Shown here: positions 10,865 through 61,269 of the stretch, one piece after another | Layout: each line of letters starts with the position of its first letter | How positions within the stretch are numbered: position 1 is the stretch's first letter | Origin: a virus | Lineage: Duplodnaviria; Heunggongvirae; Uroviricota; Caudoviricetes | DNA length: 64,000 nucleotides | Direction: 5' to 3' (one strand) | Virus record (IMG/VR): IMGVR_UViG_3300017649_000001 | Location: 24,798 to 88,797 of that record | Notes under the pieces: generated by a model | Told to the model about the DNA's origin: nothing | Seen by the model: the letters and a program-made list of their open reading frames with translations, nothing else | The model's database searches: none | Program-made: the position numbers and the translations under genes

Positions 10865-10988
10865 TCAACCCCTGCATCGCGTGTGCTATATGTGAATAAC
10901 TAACTCATTTGTTATTTACAATCTCTAACGAATTGGTTACACGCGATGCAACAGCAGCAACGGAGTACGAATTGTCTTCTAAAGACCA

Positions 10989-24749: not shown

Positions 24750-25433
24750 ATGGGCAAGGTATTTGCAATCGGCGACATTCATGGCCGTTTCGATCTTCTG
24801 GAGAAAGCTATCGAGGAGATCGAGGCTTGTAGCCACACCGGCGGTATAGTCGTCTTTCTGGGAGACTATATTGATCGCGGTCCGCAGAGTCGTGAAGTGA
24901 TCGAACGTCTAATGGCTGGGCCTTCGGATGCGGAGCGCTGGCATTGGATCTGCCTGCAGGGTAATCACGAGGACATGCTCCTTTCATGCATCGATGATGC
25001 AAAGATGGCGAACAACTGGTGGATGCCAAACGGTGGAGCGCAGACGCTAATGTCATACGGCGCGCAAAACGGCGATGAACTTTCGTCGGCACTACGGCGC
25101 GTCCCACAGCAGCACATTTCCTGGCTTCGATCTCTTCCACCGCTCTCCTATGACGACAATCGGATTTATGTTCACGCGAGCGTCGATGAAACCATCGATC
25201 TCGAGAACCATACTTCGAAGATTCTGCAATGGGATCGCTTCCCTGACGGCCACACCGGTGGCTATCGCGGAAAGCACATCGTTCATGGGCACACACCCCA
25301 TCGTGAGGTTGAACTGCACGAGGGGCGAACCAATCTCGATACCAACGCTGTCTTTACCGGCGTACTTTCTGTTGGCGTCTTCGATGATGATCAACCAGGC
25401 GGCCCGGTTCGCGTCATTTCCGTACGCGCATAA
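24750..25433 (+). CDS. Ser/Thr protein phosphatase (lambda PPase-like metallophosphoesterase)
   Basis: 'GDIHGRFDLL', 'GDYIDRGPQS', 'GNHE' motifs. Confidence 0.8.
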   Translation: MGKVFAIGDIHGRFDLLEKAIEEIEACSHTGGIVVFLGDYIDRGPQSREVIERLMAGPSDAERWHWICLQGNHEDMLLSCIDDAKMANNWWMPNGGAQTLMSYGAQNGDELSSALRRVPQQHISWLRSLPPLSYDDNRIYVHASVDETIDLENHTSKILQWDRFPDGHTGGYRGKHIVHGHTPHREVELHEGRTNLDTNAVFTGVLSVGVFDDDQPGGPVRVISVRA

Positions 25434-38986: not shown

Positions 38987-39581
38987 CCAGTTTCGCAGAT
39001 GCCATCTTCCTGACAGGGCATGTCGGTGGATGGAGCAGCCAGCAACGAGCACGGTTGGCGCCAGAAATGGATCGGTTGGAGAATGCCCGAAACACTCCAA
39101 CCGGACTGCTCAAGAGTTCAGTCAAATGAGTGACGCATTAAGCCGAATGCATCCCTGCAACGCTTTTGCTAATCTATAAACATCAAAGAAAACAACGAAC
39201 TAAGCGCACGAAGCGCGGAGCAGCAGTAATGATCTGGACGATAATTTGAGGGTGGCAGACCTCTGAAATAGCCCGGCTGAAAGTACGCCGTTATTACATA
39301 TTCAGAGCCTCTTCGCCGACGTGCGCTAGAGTGACAAGCCAAAAAGGGCCAATGTCAGAGAGGTAATGAGCTGTCGCCACACCCGCCAGGGTAGTCTTGG
39401 TGAGATTAATCAATCCGTAGAACTCGCAGTGCTGGACCGACCGCCAGCCGAGGCGTTTGAACGGGGTAATCGCTTGATTGCTCACGATCCGCACTCTTCG
39501 CTTCAGCTAAGGACTAACTAAGTTGTTAGTGACGCATGAAGCCGGGTGCTGATCAATGAACAATCGAAAGGAAGAACATCA

Positions 39582-39875
39582 ATGACAAACGCAACCAAGA
39601 AGACCTTCGCCGAGCTGGTGGCAGCGGAAGAAGCCGCCAAACACAATTCCGATCTGTCGAACCTTGCGACGGCACTGCTCAATATCAAGCGGACACGCTT
39701 TGAGCTGCAAGCATTTGTGGACGCTCTCACCGAAGAGCTTCACGAAACCGAAGCTGAGATTGATCGCCTGGTTGCTCTTATCGAGAGAGGACATGAGGTT
39801 GATGTTAGCAAGATTTCCGCTGTCTACAACAAGGCGCAACGTCCGACGACGCGATACGAGAAGTTTCAAGCTTAA
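39582..39875 (+). CDS. hypothetical protein
   Basis: RBS aaggaag before ATG 39582. Confidence 0.4.
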   Translation: MTNATKKTFAELVAAEEAAKHNSDLSNLATALLNIKRTRFELQAFVDALTEELHETEAEIDRLVALIERGHEVDVSKISAVYNKAQRPTTRYEKFQA

Positions 39876-39902
39876 CCTAAACACCTAGATAGGCTTTTAG
39901 TC

Positions 39903-40313
39903 ATGTCGCACGTTCTCATTAAAGCCACGTCGGTTCTGTCTGCTATTCCAGCAGCGCTTCGACGCATCGAAAAGGCGCGTCAGAACGCCCACTTAGGTGC
40001 AATCGAGAGTTACAAGACCAAGAAAGTGTCGCGCGGTCTGTTTCGCACCGAAGTTGTCGTCGTATCGGATGAAGAGGCTGACGAAGCCTACACCAAGGGC
40101 GATCAGATGCTTGCCGATCTTTGGTCTGGCTACCCGACGCCGCGCCAGGAGAACGACGCTCATTACGATCGTCTCGTTCACAAGGTGAATGTTCTGCGCA
40201 ATCTTGCCACCGCCTCGATAGCTCACGGCGACGGCTACGTCACAATGACCGGAGATGATCTGCGCATTCTTCCGATGCCGTCGAACATTCTTCGTAGCGA
40301 GGAGGCGGCCTGA
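39903..40313 (+). CDS. hypothetical protein
   Basis: ORF. Confidence 0.45.
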   Translation: MSHVLIKATSVLSAIPAALRRIEKARQNAHLGAIESYKTKKVSRGLFRTEVVVVSDEEADEAYTKGDQMLADLWSGYPTPRQENDAHYDRLVHKVNVLRNLATASIAHGDGYVTMTGDDLRILPMPSNILRSEEAA

Positions 40314-42526: not shown

Positions 42527-44430
42527 TTGGCTTCTTTACCACACCTCTTATATTCGGTTCATATCAGTTGTTTAAGAACGACAATCAACCAAAGGTCCGT
42601 CAAAAGCCGAGTGCTTGCCTTTGAAAAAGCGTATATTGAGAGCAGCAAATATCGAAAATAAAAACGAGCTTTGAAGACCGCTGTTACCAGCGGTCTTCAA
42701 GACGCGCAGCCGGCGGTCGTGTCTGTGAGGGAATAACACCGGCAGTTGGTGGCTTAATTTCGTAAGCCGAACCAACCGGAGACTTTAGCAAGAGGGCTTG
42801 TAACCCTTGTCTTCGAGAACAAAAATGCACCGCGATGGCAGTACGTGTGGAACAAAAAACGTCTGCTCGTCATCTTCCGATGACGTGAATGGAGGGTGTG
42901 GTATGCGTAGTACCACACCCTTTTTCATGCTTTACCAGAACTTAACATCCCATTGACAAATGCCCTAAATCGTCAACTCCAGTAAATCAGCCATTCATTT
43001 TCAGTTTGCGAAAGTAGACCAATCACTTCGTCAAATCAGCCACCAGACTGACAGGACGTAAATCAGGCCAGTCGTGAAACGCCGGCCAGCTTGTCGCTGA
43101 CTTTACCCGGAGTTTACAAAACTGGTCTGAAAGACTTGTTTTGACCTTTTGTAAATCGACGCAGACGATCACAGGCTCGATCCGACAGATGAAGAGCGCA
43201 CTTGTACGCTAGGCGTCGCGGATCTTCACCAGTGAGCATTTTTGAAGATTTCAAAAGAGTAATTTCTCGATAGCACCAATTCAGATTCGCACAAGAGATT
43301 TCTGCGGTGCGTAACTCAAAACCGCCAATAATCAGAACGACTGGTCCAGCTTCCCGCGCCAACTCTCAGATAAGCAAATAACTAGATAGGTAATTACCTT
43401 TTGGCCGAGACAAGCAAATAACTAAACTGCGCGAAACCTCGAGATAATAAGGCATACAGACAAAACACTAAATAGGCAGATAGGTACGTAGTTAGATAGA
43501 CCATAGGAACGAACATCGAGAAGAACCACAAACGATAACGAACGTCAGAACCAAGAGAAGCAAGACTGCCGGTCATAAGAGAAAGCGACAGAGCGATAGA
43601 GAGGAAGATTCTCACGCAAAGGTGAAAACGATACATAGATGAGAAGCGCCACTAGAGAACCCGATCATAGATCGAACGCATGAGAAACGCCTTATAGAGA
43701 GCTGAAGGTGAGATATGCGTATAGGGGTGAGAAAGATGCGCTAGACAGAAAGAACCTGTGAAAGTGTGAGACGGAGGAAGTGCGAGCGGCGCCTATGGCA
43801 TTTTTCCATAAACCGCCCCAATGGTTCACCTCCGTCAGCCAATTCCGGAAAAATTAGGAACCAAGGCGTTTTCCCATGGGCACGACCACATAGGCACACA
43901 GGCTCGCCCATCCCCTGCCCCGTAACCGCACGCCTACACGTCTATAAAGGCACGCAGGTAAACAGGCACATAGGCTTTTAGGCATAAACCGGAACATTGT
44001 TGCACCTATATGGAAAGAAGTTTCCACAAACCGAGCGGGATCGTTCCCGGAGCTTTCTTCCCACACTGCGAAAAGAGCCAACTCTCTATATATTATATAA
44101 ATAGGTACATAGGCATTTAGGTATATTTGTATTTAGGGAGTTGGACGAAATTGCAGAACTCCCGGTAGCGCGACCAATGGTTTCCCCAGACCGGTTATAA
44201 CTACATGCCTAAGCGCCTAAATCGTCAAATAACTACTTCCATAGGCCGGCCACAGTTCTCGCCATACCCCGGCTCCCATGTATGGAATATTTTTAAGATC
44301 AAATAAGCCACGTTTCCATGCATATAAGCCGAATGTAACCCGTCACGCGTTTTGATACTTTCAAATCATAGAGAGCACGAGGCAAAGGCGCTCTAGTGAA
44401 ACGAATTTCAACTCTGATGAGGAAAGTATC
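42527..44430. other. 1.9-kb ORF-free repeat- and hairpin-rich noncoding region; candidate origin, centromere or ncRNA locus
   Basis: No plausible ORF; purine-only tract ~43400-43790; ATAGGYA tandem iterons; CCWWWGG heptamers. Confidence 0.6.
42893..42927 (+). terminator. intrinsic terminator inside the noncoding region
   Basis: ggtgtggtatgcgtagtaccacacc hairpin followed by CTTTTTC. Confidence 0.55.
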
Positions 44431-45294
44431 ATGACCGAAGTATCCAATCTGCATCTTGACGTTGTTTCCGCCAACGCAATCGCCAACGATGTTGACCTTA
44501 ACGATATCGACGCGCTGATCGCTGCGGCCGAAAAGGAAGAAGCCACACAGAAGCTGATCGACGAAGCCAAGCAGGCCGCACTTGATGCGCAGGCCGAGCT
44601 GGACCAGGCCAATGACGACGATACGGGCGAGGCCGTTTCTGAGACGACCGTTAATATCACGCCGGTATTCGAAGAAGGCGACATTCACCAGATGCGTAAG
44701 AGCGTCGACGGCAAGACCGTTGAAAAGATCCGCGCAGAAGTGACGGCACAGTTCGATCAGCGCACCAAGTTCCACGCTGACAACGATCCGCACAACACCA
44801 ATATCCAGAAGAACCTGGCGAAGTACCGTCAGCAGTTCTCCTCGCCGCACACTGCCGGTGTGATCGCAGCGTGCAAGATGGAGGTTTCTTTCATCAATCG
44901 TGTGAAGCGTGGCGAACAGTGCTTCAACGTCTATTCGGTCGAGAAGGTCTCCAAGCTGATCAATCAGATCGTGCTCGGTGTCGCCAACAACGCCTATAAC
45001 GACGCCATCTTCAAGTCGATGTGGAACTTCATGAAGGCGAAGGTGCCTTTCACCACAGAAGCAGCCAAGGCAGCGATCTCCGACCAGATTGCGGTCAAGG
45101 ACAAGCAGATTAAGGCGCTTCTCGTGCGCCATACTGTGAAGCCAGGTACTGCGTCCACACAGTCGAGTTCCTCGCTGCGCGCGATGGAAGTTCTGGGCAT
45201 TGTGCGCAACGCCGGTACTGAAGGTCGCCAGGTGTGGGTGCTGAACGATAATCCGCAGATGCGCGCTGTTGCAGCGAGCTATGGACTGAACTGA
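44431..45294 (+). CDS. hypothetical protein
   Basis: RBS gaggaaag; strong terminator downstream; the overlapping 404-aa minus ORF is judged spurious. Confidence 0.5.
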   Translation: MTEVSNLHLDVVSANAIANDVDLNDIDALIAAAEKEEATQKLIDEAKQAALDAQAELDQANDDDTGEAVSETTVNITPVFEEGDIHQMRKSVDGKTVEKIRAEVTAQFDQRTKFHADNDPHNTNIQKNLAKYRQQFSSPHTAGVIAACKMEVSFINRVKRGEQCFNVYSVEKVSKLINQIVLGVANNAYNDAIFKSMWNFMKAKVPFTTEAAKAAISDQIAVKDKQIKALLVRHTVKPGTASTQSSSSLRAMEVLGIVRNAGTEGRQVWVLNDNPQMRAVAASYGLN

Positions 45295-45318
45295 GTTAGG
45301 AGTGAGACGAGCATAATA

Positions 45319-45352
45319 GGGGCCGGAGTTACATCTGGCCCCTATTTTTATG
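45319..45352 (+). terminator. intrinsic terminator
   Basis: ggggccggag...ctggcccc hairpin followed by TATTTTT. Confidence 0.65.
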
Positions 45353-45658
45353 CGTGATTGCTGACCATTGGATTTTTGGGGAACCAAGGCGAATGGCCTA
45401 TGGGTTGAGAAGCTGCGGGAAGAAGGCGCGACCAATGGGAGCCGCGGGACGGCGGAACGCACAATTAGGCAAATAGGTATTTCGGCATATAGGCTTGTAG
45501 GCACGCTTCTCACCTTCCGGCCATAGGTTGACGCATATCTCGCGTTGGAGCGCGCCAGTGACGGTTTATGCGCGTTTTATGATATGCCGTTTGTAACTAC
45601 GTAGTGATTTAGCTATTTAGTTATTGTCTGAAACACAAACGAGAAAGATAGCCTCACC

Positions 45659-45970
45659 ATGAAGATCACCTTTAAAGTCGAGTTCCACGAATATGACGAA
45701 ATGAACGACGCCCTGTTCGCCATTGTCAGACGAGTCGACGCCAATGAGGAATTTGAGATCTATAATATTCGCGCTCATTTCGACACAGCGATTTACGGCA
45801 TCGAATACGCTCTTCCAGAACGCGCAGAAGCCGAAGTTGATTACGCACCAACAATTCTGCTGTTCTTCATGCGCGCATTCAAAGACCGCTACGCCAAGCT
45901 CGATCACACCGCATCGCCTGCAGATGTGTTTGGTGAGGAACTTGTGTTCACACTCGACATTGACGCCTAA
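45659..45970 (+). CDS. hypothetical protein
   Basis: ORF; terminator aaaagcagc-ttcg-gctgctttt follows at 45974-46000. Confidence 0.45.
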   Translation: MKITFKVEFHEYDEMNDALFAIVRRVDANEEFEIYNIRAHFDTAIYGIEYALPERAEAEVDYAPTILLFFMRAFKDRYAKLDHTASPADVFGEELVFTLDIDA

Positions 45971-46233
45971 CGCAAAAAGCAGCTTCGGCTGCTTTTCTTT
46001 ATGTGACGATCGACCATAGGCCAGGCCATTGGTCATCAGGCCGTTTCCAGGCGCCAGGCCAATGGTTATTTACCTATTTCCCTAAATCCCTACCCGCCTA
46101 TAAGCCTATCTCCTCACGGGACACTTCCGGACGCTCGAGCATTTACCGCATTCGGCTCACTACATGCCGATTTAGTTATCTAGTGATTTAGTTAGAATAA
46201 ACATATCGAAACACTCACTAGAAAGTCACTCAC

Positions 46234-46617
46234 ATGAACAAGATCGAAGCCACCATCCGCCAGCACGCTCGTATCATCGCAGACGCTGACGAAATGCTGG
46301 ACGCGCTCGAAGATATCTCGCCAATCGTGGCACAGCTCAACATCGTCGATCGCCCGAAGAAGGACACGCCGGTCTCGCGCAAGCTTCAAATCATCAAAGA
46401 GATCCGCGCTCGCTGTGATGCAGCCATCATGAACATGCTCGACCAGATCACCGATTACGACCTGATCGACAAGATTTTTGCCGCTGCCAACGAAATCAAT
46501 GCCGAGCGTGCTGCTGACCGTGCGGCACTTGCCAAGATCAAGCGCGAGCGTATGGAGAGAATGAACGCCCATCGCGCCAACGCACAAGTCGCCGATCAAG
46601 TCGCTGTCGCAGCCTGA
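46234..46617 (+). CDS. hypothetical protein
   Basis: ORF after a palindrome-motif variant; hairpin terminator at 46635-46671. Confidence 0.45.
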   Translation: MNKIEATIRQHARIIADADEMLDALEDISPIVAQLNIVDRPKKDTPVSRKLQIIKEIRARCDAAIMNMLDQITDYDLIDKIFAAANEINAERAADRAALAKIKRERMERMNAHRANAQVADQVAVAA

Positions 46618-47076
46618 GACCACACGAGCGCGCCACGTCATGTGCAGCGCGCTCTCTTTTGAGCACTAGTTAGGTTTTCAGGCAAATAGGCAGATAAGCA
46701 TGTGGCAGATACCTATGGAACTAGATAACTGAATAGGCAGGTAGGCAAATTGCCTATGGAATATCGCCGGACGAGGATTTCGGATTTTTGGGGAACGGCA
46801 GTCACCACATAGGGAGCCGGCGTATGATGGCACAAAGGCGGGCTAGGGCGGCTTCCTATGGTGAGCGCCCGCGGGAGGCGGGGAATGGCATAAATCCATT
46901 CCCCTTATAGGCCAGGCCATTGGTATCGCTAAACCACCAATGGACTTGCGGCCTATGGCAATCAGGCCGATTTCAAAGCCAACCCCATCAAAATGCGCCA
47001 TTCCTCCGGGGGCGATAGGAATGGCGCACGTATTTGACAGGTAATTGCCTATTTAGCCATATAGGCGTTTAACTAC

Positions 47077-47307
47077 CTAGAGCAAGGCAAGCGGGTCGTC
47101 AAAGAAACGCTTTCGCAGATTGTGGGGCACAGAATTATCCTCGCAAAAGGGCAGCCCCAGAAGATCCATCATAAGGTTGGTCGATTCCGCGGATTCGCGC
47201 ATGGACCGAAGTCTGTCCCGTCGTGCCCGGTCAAAAGCCAGTTTCTGGCGTGCCGAGAGATTAGGGCGGTCGAAAATGGGCAAAGTTGCCATATCAGCGC
47301 ACCTCAC
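47077..47307 (-). CDS. hypothetical protein (minus strand)
   Basis: Overlaps the upstream minus ORF by 14 nt. Confidence 0.3.
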   Translation of the reverse strand: MRCADMATLPIFDRPNLSARQKLAFDRARRDRLRSMRESAESTNLMMDLLGLPFCEDNSVPHNLRKRFFDDPLALL

Positions 47308-47488
47308 ACGCGAAAATCGTTTCCATCGTGACGTTTCCCACGTGGGTCACTTCGGTGAGCTTCTCGCGCTGGAGCTGGTAGCCAATGCAATCTTCCTGGG
47401 TAAGACCCGTGTCGAGAATGAACTCCTCGGATTGCGTCCCGTGCGTTGGCGACGAAAAGAGCGTTATGGCGATAAGAGCGAATTTCAT
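47294..47488 (-). CDS. small secreted protein (minus strand)
   Basis: Signal peptide 'MKFALIAITLFSSPTHG'; palindrome-motif variant upstream on the minus strand. Confidence 0.35.
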   Translation of the reverse strand: MKFALIAITLFSSPTHGTQSEEFILDTGLTQEDCIGYQLQREKLTEVTHVGNVTMETIFACEVR

Positions 47489-47750
47489 TGTGAGTTGCCT
47501 TCGTTGTTTGTCACTAATCGTTTAGTGATTTTGTTATAACTGATTAGTGAGTAATGAAAATCGGCTTATGAAGTTTCTCACATGGTAATTTCTAAGCAGG
47601 GAAGGGCGCCCGCGACCGATGAATCTCCGGATACGAACCAATGAGCCTGGCTAACCGTCCCCGGCAATTCCAATGGATCCGCCACTTTTGGATTTTTGGG
47701 GAACGGATGCAAATCCAATCAGGGGAACCGGTACATAGGTACATAGGTCT

Positions 47751-47832
47751 CGTGTGTGCGTGCGCATGTGCGTGCGCATGTGCATGTGCATGTGCATGTG
47801 CATGTGCATGTGCATGTGCATGTGCATGTGCG
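47751..47832. repeat. hexanucleotide microsatellite (CATGTG)n, about 9 perfect plus 4 imperfect units
   Basis: Tandem gcatgtgcatgtg...; gives artefactual His-Ala and Cys-Ala repeat ORFs on both strands. Confidence 0.9.
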
Positions 47833-48055
47833 CTCATGCGTCATGCGCACGCATGATCGAGATAACTAAATAGATAGTGATTTATTCGCTCAAAAACACG
47901 TCATAGAAGCGTTTCAGCGCGTTTCTAGTATCATTTGTCATCTGAAGCTAGAAACGCGCTCTAGAGTCAAATTTGAGCGTTTTTCGCAAAGCGTCATAGC
48001 GTGTCAATGATAGCGTTTCGCGCATGAACGCATGACACATGCGCAAAACGCAAAA

Positions 48056-48127
48056 AAGCGCTCATATAGAGCGCTTTGAAGCTTTAGCAGATAAGAAAAG
48101 CGCTCTATTGCTAGAGCGCTTTCAAGT
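48056..48127 (-). terminator. two tandem intrinsic terminators for the minus-strand gene 48131..48730
   Basis: Hairpins aaagcgctc-atata-gagcgcttt and aaagcgctcta-ttgc-tagagcgcttt; each is followed by a T-run when read on the minus strand. Confidence 0.55.
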
Positions 48128-48130
48128 CTG

Positions 48131-49134: not shown

Positions 49135-49662
49135 ATGACGAAACCGCATACAGGGCTACCCGTCGCAGGATATCAGTCGCAGAGCGATGAAGCGGTGGCC
49201 GCCGTAAACCGCAATAAAGTGCTGGAAGAAGTGGCCCTTCGGGCCATCGAGCGGGCAGGGGAGGAGCTTGAAGGGCTGGATCCTCGTGCGCTGGCACTTG
49301 CAAAGACCAAGATGCAGGAAGCCTTCATGTGGTTCAATCGAGCCATCTTCCAGCCCAAGCGTATTGAGGGCGATCTGCCAATCGATGTGAGCCTGTTCTT
49401 CGACGAAGGATTGGTTATCGACCACAAGCTTCACGGCAAGTTGCAGCTTTTTCCGTTCACGGGCACAGCCGACAGCGCCGCAGCGCTCGCCAAGAAGCAT
49501 TCCTCTATCGTGACCTACTATGATGACGATCTGGATCGTTGGAGCGTCAGTGTGTCGTCGATTGATGGTGGAACTGTTGAGCTGGCAATTGGCGATTACC
49601 TCGCTATCGCTCGTTCAGGTCGCGCAATTGCGATGCCCAAAGAGACGATTGAGCTTCCATGA
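49135..49662 (+). CDS. hypothetical protein
   Basis: ORF after the palindrome motif; ATGA overlap with the next gene. Confidence 0.45.
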   Translation: MTKPHTGLPVAGYQSQSDEAVAAVNRNKVLEEVALRAIERAGEELEGLDPRALALAKTKMQEAFMWFNRAIFQPKRIEGDLPIDVSLFFDEGLVIDHKLHGKLQLFPFTGTADSAAALAKKHSSIVTYYDDDLDRWSVSVSSIDGGTVELAIGDYLAIARSGRAIAMPKETIELP

Positions 49663-50795: not shown

Positions 50796-51095
50796 TCAGC
50801 CTTTTTCTTTGCTCTGACGACCGCGCAGCTCTTTCTCGACCTCAATAGCCTGAATGTGCTCTGACCGGCGCCAGTCGTTAAAAATCTCAACGAGGAAGTC
50901 ACGCATCGACATACCGCGCTGTGTGGCGTGCATTTTAAACTCGCGGTGCCAATATTCCGGCATATTGAAGGTCATCGAGACGATCTTCTTTTGCTTCATA
51001 TTGTCGGCAGCGGTTGGTTTCAGAGCCGAAGCTGCGCCCAAGAAACTCTTCCGACGCTCAGACGGCTTGATTGGAACGGGGGAGTCGTCAGACAT
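50796..51095 (-). CDS. ribbon-helix-helix DNA-binding protein (ParG/CopG-like)
   Basis: 'KIVSMTFNMPEYWHREFKMHATQRGMSMRDFLVEIF' is an RHH fold; immediately downstream of ParA on the same strand. Confidence 0.55.
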   Translation of the reverse strand: MSDDSPVPIKPSERRKSFLGAASALKPTAADNMKQKKIVSMTFNMPEYWHREFKMHATQRGMSMRDFLVEIFNDWRRSEHIQAIEVEKELRGRQSKEKG

Positions 51096-51741
51096 ATTCT
51101 TCCTCTACCAGCTTGTTCACTTTGCGAATGATTTCGTCCATCAAACCCATGGCGCGGTCGTTTAGCGTCTTGAAATTGCTTTCGCTGATAGCCCGACCGG
51201 TGTTTTGCGCCATCTGATAGCCAATTTTATAGGAAAGCTCGCTCTCGGCGATCTGGAACTCGGCTTCGCTGATGTAATTGCGAGCATCTGTAACAGCGTT
51301 TGTCGATTGATCCGACGTCTTGTTCAGGACGAACAGAATACGATGGTTCTCGACACCTTTGTTTCGCAGCTCCATAGCAAAGGCGACCTGCGGCTTCAGA
51401 TCATCAAATGTCAGACCCGTCGGAATGATCACAAGCGAGGATTGCTGAGCGATTGCGAGCGAAGTGATATCCGAGTCTGGCTTGCCATCGGCAACGACCA
51501 GATCCACTTCTTCGTGCTTGATAGCTGTCGGCGAATTGAAAGGCTTCACCTGGATAGCAGGTTCAACGCCTTCTGCCGCGCGTATCTTGCCCCAATCGGA
51601 GGCCGTGTTCTGACGCGTATTGAAATCGGCCAGCAAAACGCTCCAATCGTTCTTCACAAAGGTATGCGAGATCAAACGAGCGAGTGTTGATTTTCCGACG
51701 CCGCCCTTTTGCGAAAGACAGGCGATGACGAGATCGGCCAT
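51088..51741 (-). CDS. parA: ParA/MinD-family partition ATPase
   Basis: Deviant Walker A 'LSQKGGVGKST'. Confidence 0.85.
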   Translation of the reverse strand: MADLVIACLSQKGGVGKSTLARLISHTFVKNDWSVLLADFNTRQNTASDWGKIRAAEGVEPAIQVKPFNSPTAIKHEEVDLVVADGKPDSDITSLAIAQQSSLVIIPTGLTFDDLKPQVAFAMELRNKGVENHRILFVLNKTSDQSTNAVTDARNYISEAEFQIAESELSYKIGYQMAQNTGRAISESNFKTLNDRAMGLMDEIIRKVNKLVEEEYV

Positions 51742-53662: not shown

Positions 53663-54406
53663 ATGATTACGCCACGATATTTCGACGTTTCTGTCGGGGA
53701 ATTGCGCAAAAATCCATGGAATACGAACATCGTCAGTCCGGAAAACGAGCTGAAGATACGTAACTCCATCAAGCGCAACGGAATTTTTAAACCTATCCTC
53801 GTTCGCGAGATTGCAGGCGAGAGTGGTTACGAGATCATTGGCGGCGAACATCGATGGGAGCAAGCCGTCGCGCTCGGTTTCACCGCGGTTCCTGTCTGCA
53901 ATCTCGGCGCTATCTCCGAGAAGCAGGCCAAGGAGATTGGTATCATCGACAATGCGCGTTACGGCGCGGATGACAGCCTCGGTCTTGCTGAACTTCTGAA
54001 AGAGATATCGGACAGTATCGAGGATATTCAGGAATTTCTCCCATACGGCGAAGCTGATCTTGATGATTTGTTTGGCTCAATGAGCGCTATAGATCTCGAC
54101 AGCCTGGGGATTGACGACGAAGCAGCAGAAACCGAAGCGGAATTGCTAACCGAGCTTGCGCTGCCGACGCCCAAACCGTCCAAAACTCACACAATCATGC
54201 GCTTCAAGGTTTCTCTCGGTGACGCCGAGCGCCTTACTGCGCTCGTTGCAAAGACCCAGAAAGAGCAGGGCTTGAGCGGCTCCGAGGATCTGATCAACGC
54301 CGGTGATGCCCTTGTTCACCTTCTGAGCGAGCACCTTTCCACCAGCAAAGCCAAGTCCCTCGAAGAGCAGTTGGACGAAGCATTCAAGGATGAAACCAAT
54401 GAGTGA
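53663..54406 (+). CDS. ParB-N/sulfiredoxin-like nuclease-domain protein
   Basis: 'ILVREIAGESGYEIIGGEHRWEQAVALG' ParB box; divergent from the helicase gene with a palindrome motif in the shared promoter region. Confidence 0.65.
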   Translation: MITPRYFDVSVGELRKNPWNTNIVSPENELKIRNSIKRNGIFKPILVREIAGESGYEIIGGEHRWEQAVALGFTAVPVCNLGAISEKQAKEIGIIDNARYGADDSLGLAELLKEISDSIEDIQEFLPYGEADLDDLFGSMSAIDLDSLGIDDEAAETEAELLTELALPTPKPSKTHTIMRFKVSLGDAERLTALVAKTQKEQGLSGSEDLINAGDALVHLLSEHLSTSKAKSLEEQLDEAFKDETNE

Positions 54407-55088
54407 AATCGATCATTCAAAGCAGGCGATCGAAATCTGGGATATCGATAAGATCAAACCCTACGAGCAGAACGCCAAGATTCACGATGATGCACAGGTG
54501 GAGAGCCTGTCGCGCTCGATCAGTAAGTTTGGCTGGTCCTCGCCAATTGTCATCTGGACCGACGGCGTAATCATCGCCGGGCACGGTCGCCGTCTCGCAG
54601 CCCTTAAACTCGGGCTGAAACGTATCCCTGTCATCGTTCGCCGCGATCTGACGAAGCTTGAAGCCGACGCCATGCGCATCGCTGACAACCAGGTCGTCAG
54701 CAAGAACTACGACACCAATATTATGTCCGACGAACTCCGTCGCATTAATGCGGAGCTGGAGATCGGCGGCGGAGATTTCGAGCTTTTCGATCTCGGCTTC
54801 ACATCCAAGGAGCTTGATATTCTGGTCGAGCCTCTCGAGGAAATGGATCTCAGCGTCTTCACTGATGATTTAAGCGAAGCATTGGCCGAGCAGCGCGAGA
54901 AAAACGAGGCGATTGTCGCTTCCATTGACGAAACCGCAGCCCCAGTCGGCGACGCCTTTGGCTTCAAGCGGGTGACAATTGAGCAGTCTCGTGAAATCCG
55001 CAACTTTATGCGTCAGATCGAGACGGTCGAAGGACAAAAAGGGGCGGACGCCCTTTTGGCTTTCTTTCGTAAGTACATCACTATCTAG
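54390..55088 (+). CDS. ParB-N-domain protein (second copy)
   Basis: 'PIVIWTDGVIIAGHGRRLAALKLG' ParB-N motif. Confidence 0.65.
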   Translation: MKPMSEIDHSKQAIEIWDIDKIKPYEQNAKIHDDAQVESLSRSISKFGWSSPIVIWTDGVIIAGHGRRLAALKLGLKRIPVIVRRDLTKLEADAMRIADNQVVSKNYDTNIMSDELRRINAELEIGGGDFELFDLGFTSKELDILVEPLEEMDLSVFTDDLSEALAEQREKNEAIVASIDETAAPVGDAFGFKRVTIEQSREIRNFMRQIETVEGQKGADALLAFFRKYITI

Positions 55089-56337: not shown

Positions 56338-57213
56338 ATGAATGATTTAGCAATCGAGACACTGATCACCAGGAACGATAGCCCACGCCCGTATTTCTCG
56401 CTGATGGATGAAATGATTATCAGCCGCGGTACGAAGGATGACTGGAACCTCCTGCACGATCTTCATTACAAGGCTGAGAACCTACCGATCGGTCCTCGTT
56501 TCTGGAAGCTCACCCTTCATGGCGAGACCATCGGCGTACTTGTATCTGGAACACCAAAAGGAATGCTCCGTGAGCGGCATCAGGTATTTCCAAATCTGAA
56601 GCCAGGTTCCGGAGATTCCTACGCGTCGAATAAGCACCGGTATGTCTACATAAATGCCAACTTTCGCGTAATTTCCCGCTTCGTGATCGACACCATGTAC
56701 CGCGGAATCGGTGCTGGATATCGAATGATGAACCTGGTCTCTCGCCTGGAGGGAATGACTTTCATGGAGATCCAATCCTCCATGTCGAAGTTTAATTATT
56801 TTGGCCAGAAGGCAGGCTTCAAATTCGTCAAGCCGGCGAATGCCAATAACTATGATCGGGTGATGAAATTCTTCCGGGCCAACTTTGGCTCAAATCCGCA
56901 GGATTTCGAAGCACTGGTGAACGAATTCAACGAGCTGACACCGGAACACCAGGAAGAGATGAAAAGCCTCCTGGGCAGCTTCTATTTCCGTTTCAGCGCA
57001 TTGGAAAACACCAGCAACGCAGGTGCGAACCTTGAAGCGCGTGCCGCCACTATGACCGCTCGGGATTTGATCAAGGGTATTCAGCAAATCGGTCTGGCAT
57101 CTCCCATGTACGGAATCTGGAAGAATCCCGATATCGGCCGCGAGTTACCGGACTCATTGCCGTTAAATGCGTTTGATCGCCAAAAGCCGAATGAAAGGTT
57201 GATTTTGCCATGA
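56338..57213 (+). CDS. hypothetical protein (weak GNAT-like 'YRGIGAGYRMM' motif)
   Basis: ORF; ATG at 56338 (the track start at 56245 overlaps the ATPase gene). Confidence 0.4.
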   Translation: MNDLAIETLITRNDSPRPYFSLMDEMIISRGTKDDWNLLHDLHYKAENLPIGPRFWKLTLHGETIGVLVSGTPKGMLRERHQVFPNLKPGSGDSYASNKHRYVYINANFRVISRFVIDTMYRGIGAGYRMMNLVSRLEGMTFMEIQSSMSKFNYFGQKAGFKFVKPANANNYDRVMKFFRANFGSNPQDFEALVNEFNELTPEHQEEMKSLLGSFYFRFSALENTSNAGANLEARAATMTARDLIKGIQQIGLASPMYGIWKNPDIGRELPDSLPLNAFDRQKPNERLILP

Positions 57214-57473
57214 GTAGGCTTGGAAAGCCGAACCGGACGAGAATCCAAAAGGAGATCATGGGTATCGTCATGCGCGCCGCGAGCGACGGAACACCTGTGA
57301 AGCTGCAGGACTTGCCAGCCATGCTTTCACACGCCCCATCTTATGACGCCACAAGAGTGAGCATCCGGTTCCTTGAAAACCACGGCGTGCTAAAGCGTGT
57401 CCGAGATAAGGGCCTCACGTATCTACATCCCACTCCTTCTTCCTACGAGTGGTTTCGGATGAATTACCGGTGA
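57210..57473 (+). CDS. hypothetical protein
   Basis: ATGA-overlap ORF. Confidence 0.4.
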   Translation: MSRLGKPNRTRIQKEIMGIVMRAASDGTPVKLQDLPAMLSHAPSYDATRVSIRFLENHGVLKRVRDKGLTYLHPTPSSYEWFRMNYR

Positions 57474-57483
57474 TGCGATTTCG

Positions 57484-57572
57484 TCCAACTCTCTAAATAT
57501 ATTATATACAGAATGATAAATATCTAATTAGTTATTTATATATTTAGAGAGTTGGATGAAATTGCAGAACCC
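57484..57572. promoter_or_regulatory. AT-rich inverted-repeat element ending in GTTGGATGAAATTGCAGAAC (second copy at 44078-44172)
   Basis: 18-bp inverted repeat tccaactctctaaatata/tatatttagagagttgga around an AT-rich core; lies upstream of the terminase genes. Confidence 0.5.
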
Positions 57573-57661
57573 GCCGGATAATGGGCCTGAAACTCATATA
57601 ATTGTAAAATCATGCCGGTTATGGTAATTAACTGTTTAGTTATTAACGCTGGAAGTACAAG

Positions 57662-58315
57662 ATGACAACTGAGCCGGAGACACCGGAGAACACTGAAGAA
57701 GAAAAGTCCGGCCGGAGAAAGTTGTCGGACGCCGATTACGCGGAAGCTTGCAATTTGTACGAACTTGGACAGGCCGGCATTGCTGAACTGTCTGATAAAT
57801 ACGGGTGCACGCGCCAGAATTTGTATAACCGCTTTAAAGCAGACGGCATCAAAAAATCTTCACGGGTCCACGAGCTTCAAACTGCGGCCACCGAAGCGGC
57901 AAAAAAGGCGGCCGAAGTTGCGGCTGCCGCAGCAAACCGTTTTAGCGCCAAACGCGCCGAACTGATCGAAGAGACCCGAATACAGGGCCTTAACCTTTTC
58001 AAGCAAAGTCGCCTGCTGGCTCACAAGGTCGTCACGGACGCTCTGAAGTCCGCACACTCGCTCGCATCTGTCGATGACGATCTTAAGGCGCTTCAACGAT
58101 ACAACAAGATTCTCACAGAGAACATCACCACGTCGCTCCAAGTGCTGAATGCAGACGAGCACGTTGACGAGAGCGATATGCCTCTCCTGCGCATCGAGGA
58201 TCTGACTGAAGAGGACATTCTTCAGCACCACAAGAATACGGGTGCTCTCGAGCATGACGCGACGGTTGATGATCTAAACCTACCTGATCTATCGGAAGTC
58301 ACCAGGACAATCTGA
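57662..58315 (+). CDS. terminase small subunit (putative)
   Basis: HTH-like N-terminus; stop overlaps the terminase large subunit start (ATGA). Confidence 0.5.
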   Translation: MTTEPETPENTEEEKSGRRKLSDADYAEACNLYELGQAGIAELSDKYGCTRQNLYNRFKADGIKKSSRVHELQTAATEAAKKAAEVAAAAANRFSAKRAELIEETRIQGLNLFKQSRLLAHKVVTDALKSAHSLASVDDDLKALQRYNKILTENITTSLQVLNADEHVDESDMPLLRIEDLTEEDILQHHKNTGALEHDATVDDLNLPDLSEVTRTI

Positions 58316-59589
58316 TGGCTGCCCCGATCTGCACATCGCTCAAAGTCCACGCCGGCCAGTCCATAATCATGCGAAATCAGTCTCGCTTTCGCGTGGTTGT
58401 GGCCGGTCGCCGTTGGGGTAAAACCCAGATTTCAAAGATTTCCATCGTGAAGGCTGCAGCCTCCAAGCCAAATCAGCTCGTCTGGTATGTCGCGCCGACC
58501 TATCAAATGGCTCGCCAGATCATGTGGGATGATCTTCGCTTGTCGATTCCGCGGGAGTGGATTGTCAAAGTCCACGAGACGCGAATGGAGATCTATCTCT
58601 ACAACGGCTCGAAAATTGCGCTGAAAGGCGCGGATAAGCCGGACACCCTGCGCGGTGTGGGTCTGCATTTCGTGGTGATCGACGAGGCGCAGGATATCAA
58701 AAAGGAGACATGGGAAGAGGTTCTCCAGCCGACGTTGGCAACCACAAACGGAAAGGCTCTCTTTATCGGCACGCCGAAGGCATACAACTGGCTCTACGAT
58801 AAGTGGCGCTTTGGCCAGCGTGGCGATTTTTACTTCGACGACAACGGTAAGAAGCATCCGAATGAATGGCATTCGTGGCAGTTTCCGACCATAACATCGC
58901 CATTCATTCCACGCGCTGAGATCGAAGCACGCCGCAGAGACATGGATCCGCGCTCGTTCCGTCAGGAATTTGAGGCGTCTTTCGAGTCCATGGCAGGACG
59001 CGTCTACTACAATTTCAGCCGTAAGACGCACGTTACCGATCTGGCATTCAATCCGCACGAACCAATCTACATCGGTATGGACTTTAACATCGATCCTATG
59101 TCCGCCGTGGTGCTTCAGGAGAAACCGAATGGTGAAATCTGGGCAATCGATGAGATCGTCCAGTATTCGTCGAACGCCGAGGAGACCGGTGAGGAAATCA
59201 TGCGGCGCTATTACAAATACGCCAATCAGATTTTCGTCTTTCCGGATCCCGCAGGTAACAACCGTAACCACGACCGCGGCGAGTCTTCGCTCGATGTGCT
59301 TCGAGATCAGGGTCTGAAGAATATCTACTTCAAAAAGAAACACCCCGCCGTCCAGGATCGTGTAGCGTCCGTAAACCGCCTTCTCATGTCGGCTGACGGT
59401 CAAATGAGGCTCAAGGTGGACCGGAAATGCGTTCGTCTGATCGATTCATTGGAACAGACGATCTACAAGCCAGGTGCTCGTGAGGTCGATAAGTCACAAG
59501 GTGTCGAACACGTCACCGATGCTCTTGGTTATTACACCGATTACAGGTTCCCGGTCCGTAAGGTCAACATCCTTGGGGTAGAAGTTTGA
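58315..59589 (+). CDS. terminase large subunit
   Basis: Walker A 'VVAGRRWGKT', Walker B 'HFVVIDEAQDI', C-terminal nuclease-like region. Confidence 0.75.
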   Translation: MAAPICTSLKVHAGQSIIMRNQSRFRVVVAGRRWGKTQISKISIVKAAASKPNQLVWYVAPTYQMARQIMWDDLRLSIPREWIVKVHETRMEIYLYNGSKIALKGADKPDTLRGVGLHFVVIDEAQDIKKETWEEVLQPTLATTNGKALFIGTPKAYNWLYDKWRFGQRGDFYFDDNGKKHPNEWHSWQFPTITSPFIPRAEIEARRRDMDPRSFRQEFEASFESMAGRVYYNFSRKTHVTDLAFNPHEPIYIGMDFNIDPMSAVVLQEKPNGEIWAIDEIVQYSSNAEETGEEIMRRYYKYANQIFVFPDPAGNNRNHDRGESSLDVLRDQGLKNIYFKKKHPAVQDRVASVNRLLMSADGQMRLKVDRKCVRLIDSLEQTIYKPGAREVDKSQGVEHVTDALGYYTDYRFPVRKVNILGVEV

Positions 59590-59649: not shown

Positions 59650-61269
59650 GTGGCACGGAAACCTAAAAGCGAAATCTATGCTGAGTTCTATGAGCGTCGT
59701 CATCCAATGTATGACGCGCTCCTTGAACATTGGCGTTTCTGCGAATCCACTTACAAAGGCGGTCGCAATTGGTTTAGCGAGAACATTTTTCGCTACTTCA
59801 AGGAAGGTCCGGGCGAGTATGCTGATCGTATTCAGCGTGCCTATCGCTTCAATCACACCCGTGAGGTTGTGGAACTTGTCCAGAAATATCTGTTCAAGGT
59901 AGGACCGGCGCGATCCAACGAGGCTCCAGATGCCGTCAAAAAGTTCTGGAAGCGCTCCACGCTCTCGGGCGCAAGCATCGACCATCTCGTCCGTGTCGCA
60001 AGCACGGCGTCGTCGATCACAGGTGTTTGCGCCGTTGTGATCGACAACAATATGGGCAACGTCGTTGCCGAAAAGGAAAATATCTCTGTAGCGGAAGCCG
60101 ACAAGGCGCGCGTCTACGGATATATCGTCAATGCCCGTGATATTCTGGATTACGCTTGGGACGAAGATGGCGACGGCGAACTGCTGTGGGTCAAACTCCG
60201 CGAGCATGTTCGGGACGATGCGAACTTTCTGACCTCGAGCGGTGAGATTTACGAGCGCGTGCGTGTTTGGACACGCACTGAGTGGTTTCTTTACACCAAG
60301 AAGACTGTACGCACTCGGACGTCCGCAACATCGGTTCATTCGAGCGAGACCGCTGAAGTTGTCGAGCTGACCGATAAGGGCACGCACGACCTCGGCTTCG
60401 TCCCGGTCAAGATTTTTCGTCACCAGGTCACTGACGAGCCTTACATTTCGTCCGGACTGATCGATGAAATCGCCTATATGGATCGAGCCGTTGCGAATTA
60501 CCTGTCCAACCTCGATGCTATTATTCAGGATCAGACCTTCTCTCAGCTTGCTATTCCGGCTCAGTCGCTGAGCAACGCTGACGGCGCTGAGAAAAAGGCC
60601 GTCGAGATGGGCACCAAGCGCATCTTTACCTACGACGGCGGTTCTGGTTCGAATGCGAAACCGGAGTATTTGTCGCCCGATCCCAAGCAGGCCGGCGTAA
60701 TTCTGGAATCCATTAACAAAATTATCAGCGAAATTTATCACACCATCGGTCTCGCAGGTGAGCGAACCAAGGAAGATAATTCCGTTGGTATCGACAATTC
60801 GTCCGGCGTAGCGAAAGCCTACGACTTCGAGCGCGTAAATTCCTTGCTACTGTCCAAGGCTCAGAGCTGCGAGCTTCTTGAGAACTGGATCATCAAGGCT
60901 GTGTGCGCATGGCACCACGTCGATCAGGACGAAGAAGAACAGTTTGTAACCTATCCGACCACTTTCGACGTCATGCGACTGGTGGACGATCTGGTTACGG
61001 CTGAAGCTCTCCAGAAGATCAATGCACCTTCGGAGATCCGCAAACTTCAGATGAAGGGTCTGGCAAAGAAGCTGTTTCCGCAGATCGACGCCGCTCTTGA
61101 GAAGAAGATCGAGGCCGATATCGACAAATGGGAAACTAGCCCCGTCGTCACGGCTTCAACTGTCCCCAACCCGACAGGATCGAAAGCAACCGCCGAAGGT
61201 AGTCGGCAGGGGCAAGTAACATCCAAAACCGAAAAGATCAACAAGGCCAAGGGTGAGATAGCAGCCTAA
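59650..61269 (+). CDS. portal protein (putative)
   Basis: 539-aa ORF immediately after the terminase large subunit; GTG start; the overlapping 375-aa minus ORF is rejected. Confidence 0.5.
   Translation: MARKPKSEIYAEFYERRHPMYDALLEHWRFCESTYKGGRNWFSENIFRYFKEGPGEYADRIQRAYRFNHTREVVELVQKYLFKVGPARSNEAPDAVKKFWKRSTLSGASIDHLVRVASTASSITGVCAVVIDNNMGNVVAEKENISVAEADKARVYGYIVNARDILDYAWDEDGDGELLWVKLREHVRDDANFLTSSGEIYERVRVWTRTEWFLYTKKTVRTRTSATSVHSSETAEVVELTDKGTHDLGFVPVKIFRHQVTDEPYISSGLIDEIAYMDRAVANYLSNLDAIIQDQTFSQLAIPAQSLSNADGAEKKAVEMGTKRIFTYDGGSGSNAKPEYLSPDPKQAGVILESINKIISEIYHTIGLAGERTKEDNSVGIDNSSGVAKAYDFERVNSLLLSKAQSCELLENWIIKAVCAWHHVDQDEEEQFVTYPTTFDVMRLVDDLVTAEALQKINAPSEIRKLQMKGLAKKLFPQIDAALEKKIEADIDKWETSPVVTASTVPNPTGSKATAEGSRQGQVTSKTEKINKAKGEIAA

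Follow-up and report, generated by a model that had tools for sequence, protein, structure and literature searches.

Two matched copies of a conserved palindromic element in a family of Rhizobiales phage-plasmids

Introduction

The cos and pac sites of phages such as lambda, HK97 and SPP1 classically lie just upstream of the small terminase gene. We describe here a palindromic element of about 85-100 bp that is present twice in a 64,000-nucleotide stretch of a virus genome of the Caudoviricetes (IMG/VR record IMGVR_UViG_3300017649_000001, positions 24,798 to 88,797; this whole stretch is called the window, and positions are counted from its first letter). Both copies are on the + strand, copy 1 at 44066-44163 and copy 2 at 57469-57571, where it precedes a candidate small terminase gene (terS). 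Copy 2 resembles lambda cos and SPP1 pac in lying directly upstream of terS, in its AT-rich, bendable DNA and in its dyad symmetry. It differs from them in that the virion ends of relatives do not lie at copy 2, and in that a second copy is found 13-15 kb away.

Other described systems share parts of this layout. In the parS site of P1, two arms flank an AT-rich bend site, the whole measuring about 80 bp. The palindromes of the herpesvirus origins oriL and oriS have an AT-rich centre between inverted protein-binding boxes and occur in at least two copies per genome, and SPP1 has two origin regions that are bound by one initiator. The RNase III hairpins of T7 are long, intergenic, placed between co-directional gene blocks and present in several related copies per genome. 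Several matched palindromes, the IR1-4 centromere repeats, are scattered among the phage genes of N15 (PMC7205306). In T5, a 131-bp injection-stop element of the form IRC-spacer-IRD occurs twice in the terminal repeat and is conserved in the family, unlike the neighbouring genes (bioRxiv 10.1101/866236).

The element of the window matches none of these in full. P1 and N15 are phage-plasmids like the family studied here, and a site located where an operon with leading ParB-family genes ends is a further likeness: our element ends an operon headed by two ParB_N proteins and occurs twice per genome. However, its half-sites are 64 nt apart, and the N15 palindromes are contiguous and 16 bp long, whereas the arms here measure 19-36 bp and covary like a hairpin; neither centre has a consensus like that for integration host factor (IHF), and, since the ParA of the window seems to have a ribbon-helix-helix (RHH)-like partner, the "ParB-like" proteins may not be centromere binders. 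With T5 the element shares its nature as a complex element of about 100 bp, in two matched copies kilobases apart in or near a long terminal repeat, within a repeat-rich, non-coding region. The T5 copies are mutually inverted, 3 kb apart and equipped with DnaA boxes, whereas ours are direct, 13-15 kb apart, and only one of them lies in the presumed repeat. The likeness to oriL and oriS (AT-rich centre, inverted boxes, hairpin capacity) concerns a different virus realm and is an analogy only. T7 RNase III sites have internal loops and small apical loops, unlike the near-perfect stems found here, which enclose an AT-rich loop of 12-46 nt with a conserved DNA-type palindrome and which in some copies lack one arm.

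Matches at the DNA and protein level assign the window to a phage-plasmid clade that comprises the Sinorhizobium plasmid pLM21S1, the Rhizobium phages RHEph10, RHph_X66 (X66), B1VFA and V1VFA-S, and 115-120 kb plasmids of Shinella, Pararhizobium and Methylobacterium; the source genome of the window measures 112,222 bp. The clade occurs widely, both on plasmids of Rhizobiales and in soil viromes, and to our knowledge none of its cis-acting sites (packaging signal, lytic origin or late control) has been mapped so far. Full-text searches on these phages, made for other purposes, returned no description of the element. Distant relatives of the clade include the SSU5 and Acinetobacter phage-plasmid groups (PMC7969092).

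Results and discussion

One element in two copies

Copy 2 is the best local inverted repeat of the window, with a score of 23 against 13 for the next. Its core TCCAACTCTCTAAATATAT (57484-57502) pairs perfectly with ATATATTTAGAGAGTTGGA (57538-57556) over 19 bp, and the arms extend to 34 nt (57469-57502 and 57538-57571, 88% matching) around an AT-rich spacer of 35 nt. A sequence-only reading, which had called attention to the locus, described an 18-bp perfect repeat around a 50-bp core; the perfect repeat stands, with 19 bp, but the spacer is shorter. The same reading placed a separate shared tail behind each copy. This sequence is indeed common to both, but in copy 2 the tail, TGAAATTGCAG, is the outer part of the right arm and pairs with GCGATTTCGTCC on the left, with two mismatches that are both G opposite T. 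The proposed hairpin or cruciform capacity of copy 2 is strong: it folds at -26.4 kcal/mol as DNA (z -9.4 against shuffles) and at -49.6 kcal/mol as + strand RNA (z -11.6). The left arm proper (57474-57502) starts at the stop codon of the upstream gene and carries the outer core TTTCGTCC, which is homologous to TTCCCGTCC of the family. The AT-rich centre (57503-57537) holds a TAACTAA..TTAGTTA palindrome at 57517-57539, whose motif columns are nearly invariant among relatives, and the right arm with its tail (GAGAGTTGGATGAAATTGCAGAACC, 57538-57571), which recurs in copy 1, is the best-conserved non-coding piece.

Copy 1 consists of a left arm, a centre, a right arm and a tail to 44159. Its arms, CCAACTCTCTA (44078-44088) and TAGGGAGTTGG (44134-44144), pair over 11 bp including one T.G, and its fold is unremarkable as DNA (z -1.3) and modest as RNA (z -2.8 on the + strand, -0.9 on the - strand). 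Copy 1 is thus significant because it resembles copy 2, not for its own hairpin. Common to both copies are CCAACTCTCTAwATATATTATATA on the left and TATTTAGrGAGTTGGAyGAAATTGCAGAAC on the right, the latter including the tail GTTGGAyGAAATTGCAGAAC. The 20-mer GTTGGAYGAAATTGCAGAAC occurs at 44140 and 57551 and, inverted and with three mismatches, at 57470, where 0.02 would be expected. The copies are 75% identical over 73 nt, and their local alignment score of 50 exceeds the maximum of 39 among 248 other 500-nt windows, so that the duplication proposed from the sequence is real, at the positions given for it, and well beyond chance. A covariance model trained on copy-2 elements matches the window at these two places only, namely at 57470-57570 (71.6 bits on the + strand, 48.8 on the - strand) and at 44070-44159 (29.2 bits, E 0.018).

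The centres of the two copies are unlike. Copy 2 carries the TAACTAA..TTAGTTA palindrome that is found window-wide, and the centre of copy 1 (44095-44143, + strand) is an array of three to four 8-bp nnTAGGyA units. Six other such iteron-like arrays occur, all in the repeat-rich region around copy 1 (43458-43496, 43948-43996, 45467-45503, 46672-46760, 47039-47071 and 47713-47749).

Conservation upstream of the terminase genes

We compared the terS side of 25 relatives: 20 IMG/VR contigs with a large terminase (TerL) at least 64% identical to that of the window, X66, V1VFA-S, pLM21S1, RHEph10 and the Pararhizobium plasmid. A palindrome stands right at the stop codon of the gene before terS in 25 of 25, from Rhizobium-type lineages to Methylobacterium. 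In the relatives inspected its left edge overlaps this stop codon or follows it by 0-3 nt. For most of them the arms measure 19-36 nt, the spacer measures 12-46 nt, and 44-105 nt separate the palindrome from the start of terS. Four contigs (L007, L009, L010 and L026) have a degenerate or atypical version, and the arms are shorter in the Shinella and Methylobacterium plasmids. In the window, copy 2 ends 91 nt before the terS start codon, as close to the gene as the sequence-only reading had said.

The two arms change together. Compensatory double changes occur at 19 of the 20 stem pairs in an alignment of 22 sequences. The share of cells that pair is 90.7%, compared to 64.5% after shuffling and 40-49% after a shift of the partner by 1-3 columns (covariation score 0.69 vs 0.21). 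Conservation also extends to the sequence itself. The outer core reads TTCCCGTCC / GGACGGGAA in most lineages (GTCC...GGAC), with invariant C and G columns, and the TTTCGTCC / GGAyGAAA of the window is a diverged form of it; a central motif of the AAGTAAnnnnTTACTT type is conserved in the family as well. From the outside in, the element is thus built of an outer core, a lineage-specific inner arm, the AT-rich centre, the inverted inner arm, and the outer core again with a short tail. The distance from core to core is 64.3 ± 2.4 nt despite a three-fold variation in how this length is split between arm and loop. Between the window and a relative with a 65% identical TerS, identity is 83% in the right arm and 69% in the left arm, while the centre and the downstream spacer reach 46-54%. 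The arms, the right arm above all, are therefore constrained in sequence and not in pairing alone. In a metagenome relative with flanking proteins 97-100% identical (287-aa protein 97%), copy 2 is identical and copy 1 has one substitution.

Concerted evolution of the copies

Both regions could be read in the window, X66, V1VFA-S, B1VFA, pLM21S1, RHEph10, the Pararhizobium and Methylobacterium plasmids and three IMG/VR genomes. All ten lineages fully readable at both regions have a second matched copy, oriented like copy 2 and placed 13-15 kb ahead of it; a homologue of a 287-aa gene that anchors copy 1 in every relative follows this second copy after about 250-300 nt. The conservation of both copies, which the sequence-only reading had named as a check, is thereby established. 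An eleventh lineage, that of the relative with the 65% identical TerS, shows the right arm of copy 1 alone, with the contig ending there. This contig (L171; Logan SRR31629360, 41,946 bp) has its position 1 inside the centre of copy 1, yet copy 2 was read through; the cause may be poor coverage of the AT-rich palindrome, a break made by the assembly or a genuine end of the DNA. No third copy came up when 695 kb, among them the B1VFA and V1VFA-S genomes in full, were searched with the covariance model. Exact-word scans of viral, genome and metagenome collections were also tried as a route to close relatives and gave chance-level hits; the close relatives came via proteins.

Between 65 and 86 positions are identical between the two copies of one genome, and the sequence that the copies have in common varies among lineages. 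For example, the two copies share GGACGGGAATGAAG in X66, B1VFA and pLM21S1, TCCGGTCCGTCTCCCTTC in RHEph10 and the Pararhizobium plasmid, GGAyGAAATTGCAG in the window and GGACGAAATAGCAG in the relative with the 65% identical TerS, where ATAGCAG replaces the ATTGCAG of the window at both places. A shared reader explains copies that match within a genome and differ between lineages, which mere hairpin stability does not. In some genomes, one copy lacks one arm and the other arm is nearly identical to the partner copy, and the good palindrome is copy 2 in the window, X66 and pLM21S1, but copy 1 in L009/L095 and Methylobacterium. The loss of single arms and the changing identity of the good copy fit half-site recognition and redundancy rather than a local RNA hairpin.

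The two sites are two copies of one conserved palindromic cis-element of this Rhizobiales phage-plasmid family. It is real, conserved and non-random, and most likely a variant of a familiar kind of phage cis-site. Its concerted evolution, its family-wide core with constrained spacing, and the single arms that survive where redundancy exists together point to a shared, sequence-specific reader on DNA. Our best reading, which we put forward tentatively, is therefore a DNA palindrome read by a phage-encoded DNA-binding protein that is tied to the packaging module. One sequence-specific phage protein would recognise, on DNA, the two inverted half-sites about 64 bp apart, and the ability of the arms to pair with each other, as hairpin or cruciform, would keep them symmetric. 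The likeliest reader would be a protein encoded beside copy 2, chiefly the small terminase candidate; the 87-aa protein whose gene abuts the left arm would be a more speculative alternative, suggested by adjacency. Copy 1, inside the presumed terminal repeat and within a few hundred bp of its left end, would then serve as a pac-like recognition landmark for packaging, and copy 2 would be operator-like and couple the terminase and morphogenesis operon to that protein. Anatomy, conservation at both places, covarying arms, concerted evolution and constrained core spacing are observed; that the element acts as DNA, which protein reads it, its part in packaging and where the terminal repeat lies are inferred.

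The pair is a clean natural case of concerted evolution at two distant sites and offers candidate binding targets for the small terminase and the neighbouring 87-aa protein. With one copy in the terminal-repeat region and the other heading the terminase operon, it gives a good experimental handle on the cis-sites of an unstudied family, and the covariance model can locate the same landmarks in new contigs. A packaging recognition site or a lytic origin at these places would help to orient the genomes of the family and to build packaging or replication vectors for rhizobia.

Homogenised copies within each genome, with terminal inverted repeats around an AT-rich core, could also be the mark of a selfish or neutral repeat without function. 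Such a repeat, similar to a miniature inverted-repeat transposable element (MITE) or a repetitive extragenic palindromic (REP) sequence, would have been inserted twice, or its symmetry would be kept by intrastrand repair and gene conversion. We give this explanation very little credence. The element holds orthologous positions in every lineage from Rhizobium-type to Methylobacterium, has two copies only per genome and has arms that are better conserved than their flanks, and the collection scans at chance level reveal no host-borne family. MITE and REP elements were rejected as classes on the same grounds of copy number, orthologous position and scan results.

Lytic replication origins, with an AT-rich melting centre between inverted initiator boxes, would account for two matched copies and for their apparent redundancy as to which one is intact. 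The clade encodes its own replisome (DnaE, primase and helicases) and has RepC elsewhere, and a separate lytic origin is therefore needed. The anatomy, with inverted conserved cores around an AT-rich centre within about 85 bp, fits an origin, the centre carries a promoter-proximal motif, and in B1VFA and V1VFA-S the detrended GC skew has its minimum, of small amplitude, some 2 kb away from copy 1. Against this, the skew signal is weak and confounded by gene orientation, and nothing about the element is specific to replication. No DnaA boxes are present in or near either copy, nor are they enriched (4 found vs 3.3 expected). No initiator was identified, and the 287-aa neighbour is without a recognisable domain. 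An origin function at the two copies is accordingly a rather improbable explanation. The related idea that the 287-aa gene is RepC, and copy 1 part of a plasmid origin, was discarded: the annotated RepC of B1VFA lies 52 kb away, and no database match was obtained for the 287-aa protein.

Pairing of the arms and the RNA level

Several observations weigh against a DNA palindrome that is read by a packaging-linked protein. Arms of 19-36 bp with 90.7% pairing are longer than an ordinary protein footprint, which argues for selection on base pairing as such. Mismatches of the G.U type are biased towards the + strand (21 vs 10), the + strand folds better in 16 of 22 elements (Wilcoxon p 0.035, on samples that are not independent), and in the window it folds better by 10 kcal/mol. 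Copy 2 (B1VFA 54,259-54,340) lies about 11 kb from the presumed terminal repeat and not near a genome end. The SSU5, Nickievirus and Acinetobacter plasmids (TerL at most 61% identical) have the same flanking genes and no comparable palindrome 44-105 nt upstream of terS; three of 20 distant relatives scanned have an inverted repeat of score 10-23 further upstream. Finally, the structure model of the 87-aa protein is of low confidence (predicted local distance difference test, pLDDT, 58), too low for a fold search.

The weak strand bias among these points leans towards a role as RNA or as a single strand and suits another explanation, namely a + strand RNA hairpin with a stem of about 20 bp or more. 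Placed directly behind the last codon of the upstream operon, which runs from the ParB-like proteins to the 87-aa protein, the hairpin would terminate, insulate or process transcripts that read through towards the terminase genes, perhaps as a target of RNase III-type cleavage or by stabilising a 3' end, and copy 1 would act likewise before the 287-aa gene. We regard this as unlikely, yet as a possibility of some weight. The 20 stem pairs covary very strongly, the stem measures at least 19 bp in every good copy, the left arm follows or overlaps the stop codon so closely in the relatives inspected, and both copies are oriented as the surrounding genes. Copy 1 beats shuffles as + strand RNA only, and two of the four arm mismatches in the relative with the 65% identical TerS are U.G on the + strand. 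RNA folds range from -24 to -59 kcal/mol in the family alignment, with stems of 19-36 bp where RNase III-type sites call for about 20 bp or more, transcription being assumed from gene orientation only. On the other side, the stem has no U-tract and is therefore not an intrinsic terminator: a consensus scan found none at either copy, the loops measure 12-46 nt, and no relative has a T-run after the stem. A hairpin role needs neither the matched sequence of the copies nor the conserved outer core. Copy 1 lacks its left arm in X66, B1VFA, V1VFA-S and pLM21S1, where the right arm is nearly as in copy 2, and L009 has a degenerate copy 2. A mutational bias (C-to-T on the non-template strand) could account for the wobble pattern. 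Rfam 15 yielded no family match in the whole window at the gathering threshold, and a permissive E-value scan of the copy-1 region alone (42.4-49.2 kb) gave spurious hits to a TGTGCA tandem repeat. If the element were an RNA boundary hairpin only, the finding would be an ordinary one.

Genome ends in relatives

B1VFA has fixed termini with a direct terminal repeat of 3,605 bp according to PhageTerm, and V1VFA-S has a terminal repeat of 3,939 bp as judged from coverage (PMC12509600). We searched the alignment of the two genomes for places where a 3,605-bp span matches a 3,939-bp span. Within ±3 bp, the sole solution runs from B1VFA 39,631-39,809 to 43,236-43,414 and covers the repeat-rich non-coding region and the homologue of the 287-aa gene; a second solution, within ±12 bp, is inside structural genes. 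On these published lengths, copy 1 (B1VFA 40,023-40,095) would fall within the terminal repeat, about 0.2-0.4 kb from its left end, and not at its boundary, and the repeat-rich, mostly non-coding region around copy 1 in the window (42527-48130, without strand) probably corresponds to the direct terminal repeat that measures 3.6-3.9 kb in B1VFA and V1VFA-S. A pac-associated role, as the sequence-only reading had suggested, is possible for copy 1.

For copy 2, the corresponding suggestion of a pac or cos terminus was not supported, as the repeat lengths and the alignment put the ends of relatives elsewhere. That the terminase literally cuts at copy 2, with the virion end there, has in its favour the classical position directly upstream of the small terminase gene and, as an inference only, a TerL tree that groups a Nickievirus relative with 3'-cos phages (PMC8537276). 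However, B1VFA and V1VFA-S have fixed ends with a repeat of 3.6-3.9 kb, and the 21-kb block that contains copy 2 is collinear and indel-free between the two, so that a repeat located there could not differ by 334 bp. The copies lie 13-15 kb apart in the family, not 3.6-3.9 kb; at 13.8 kb in V1VFA-S, they cannot both be boundaries of the repeat. Cleavage at copy 2 is thus highly improbable.

Two further approaches to the ends were abandoned. The GenBank records of B1VFA and V1VFA-S start at non-homologous places, and record starts are hence arbitrary and not usable as genome ends. A search for a motif common to both presumed repeat boundaries returned chance-level words alone at a spacing of 3605 or 3939. 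A T5-like identity, in which the copies would bound a 13-kb terminal repeat, was likewise rejected: the clade is that of pLM21S1 and RHEph10, and the published repeat measures 3.6-3.9 kb.

Two side observations concern the surroundings of this left end. A purine-rich stretch with about ten ATAGAG/ATAGAT repeats and an AT skew of up to 0.51 lies at 43380-43780 of the window, and also at B1VFA 39500-39600 and L084 8700-8930, just left of the presumed left end of the repeat. A conserved run of hairpins, which ends in a terminator-like stem and a T-run, precedes copy 1 by 130-300 nt in the lineages of X66, B1VFA and pLM21S1 (L001 3200-3345, B1VFA 39770-39925 and L084 9100-9255). It shows compensatory changes between lineages and is possibly a small RNA gene.

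The segment between the copies holds the terminal-repeat genes, a candidate sponge of the Acb2/Tad1 type, and partition and helicase genes, with tRNAs in relatives. The matched palindromes could bracket a "first-in" segment of 13-15 kb, with copy 2 as a programmed pause or stop, a scenario that we consider far-fetched. Such a stop may be an injection stop like that of T5, or a hairpin cut by a phage SbcCD-like nuclease that starts recombination-dependent replication; in a variant, RNA of one copy may pair with the complementary arm of the other and so time late expression in trans. Anti-defence and maintenance genes would in that case act before packaging and structural genes enter or are expressed. 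A T5-type injection stop in the strict sense was rejected, as DnaA boxes are absent, the copies are direct and the clade is not T5-like.

Comparison with other site classes

A late promoter, the other role that the sequence-only reading called plausible, may or may not be present: the centre of copy 2 carries the promoter-proximal palindrome of the family, and a sigma-70 consensus was not found at the copies. Two more specific promoter readings were dropped. The core of the B1VFA arms, TCCCGTC, resembles the upstream box of a promoter-like class of this phage, TGCAyTCC-N11-GCGCTATAA, but a weight matrix for this class finds about 20 sites and has neither copy among its top 30. The tail TGGAyGAAATTGCA recalls the sigma-54 promoter TGGCAC-N5-TTGCA, but its GG-to-GC spacing is 8 and not 10, and by eye the relatives do not have it. 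Neither centre contains an IHF site at up to one mismatch. Under the attC core criterion (RYYYAAC ... GTTRRRY), GTCCAAC/GTTGGAT of the window fit by eye, but most relatives have TTCCCGTCC/GGACGGGAA and the stem is continuous, where attC has an unpaired spacer and extrahelical bases, which led us to reject attC; the genes scanned between 39 and 62 kb included no integrase.

Genes around the two copies

The gene order at copy 2 is two ParB_N proteins, P-loop/ABC-like ATPases, the 87-aa protein, the palindrome, the terS candidate, terL and the portal gene. The terS candidate (57662-58315, + strand) matches phrog_867 ("DNA binding domain"), and its N-terminal helix-turn-helix match (HTH_7) is weak, below Pfam's cut-off. 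It is followed by terL (58315-59589) and the portal gene (59650-61269). The 87-aa protein (57210-57473, + strand), whose stop codon abuts the left arm of copy 2, found no match in a Pfam search; its only family match, phrog_900, is of unknown function and uninformative. A winged-helix-like pattern can be read in its sequence by eye, a speculative assignment that no tool confirmed. A second palindrome of the TAACTAA type (57624-57646, + strand) stands 15 nt before the terS start codon. It is kept in the relative with the 65% identical TerS and is probably a proximal control site of terS, separate from the large palindrome.

Copy 1 is located in a 1.9-kb repeat-rich non-coding stretch. About 270 nt downstream of it lies the conserved 287-aa gene of unknown function (44431-45294, + strand), whose product had no match in Pfam, NCBIfam, PHROG or PDB. 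Farther on, between the copies, a 175-aa protein (49135-49662, + strand) contains an Acb2/Tad1 hairpin domain (E 5e-15) and is a candidate sponge against CBASS or Thoeris defence. A small ParA ATPase (51088-51741, - strand), followed by a 99-aa Arc/RHH-like protein (50796-51095, - strand), looks like a type Ib partition pair. With ParA and an RHH-like protein apparently forming the partition pair, the two "ParB-like" proteins (53663-55088) may have another role.

Other repeats in the window

The small TAACTAA-N5-TTAGTTA palindrome of the copy 2 centre occurs at about 20 sites of the window, 10-70 nt upstream of + strand start codons, in early and late regions alike (e.g. 2097, 7784, 10893, 13445, 15885, 20827, 23564, 31109, 49058, 53623, 57517, 57624, 59595, 62271, 62325 and 63290). 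Its equivalent in B1VFA is AAGTAA-N4-TTACTT, with 31 copies. This palindrome could be an operator for a global regulator or a 5'-untranslated-region hairpin.

The promoter-like class TGCAyTCC-N11-GCGCTATAA stands just before the small palindrome in B1VFA, where about 20 high-scoring sites, all on the + strand of early genes, include positions 455, 4506, 8829, 13345, 20023, 21693, 104717, 109979 and 118903 (L087/L092/L088). Its counterparts in the window are CCCTCG-N9-GyTATAA at 10893, 13445, 15885 and 23564. The clade encodes its own sigma-70-family factor.

Within the repeat-rich region, a 12-nt tandem repeat at 47743-47838 starts as TGTGCGTGCGCA and decays to TGTGCATGTGCA over about eight units; it draws spurious microRNA hits in Rfam and is flanked by an inverted repeat (47748-47768 / 47842-47862). 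The sequence TTGGATTTTTGGGGAAC occurs three times in non-coding DNA between small genes (45368-45394, 46780-46806 and 47688-47714). At 10873-10950, a 12-nt inverted repeat, TGCATCGCGTGT / ACACGCGATGCA, brackets 54 nt that contain a promoter-like box and a TAACTAA palindrome, a layout that echoes copy 2 on a small scale.

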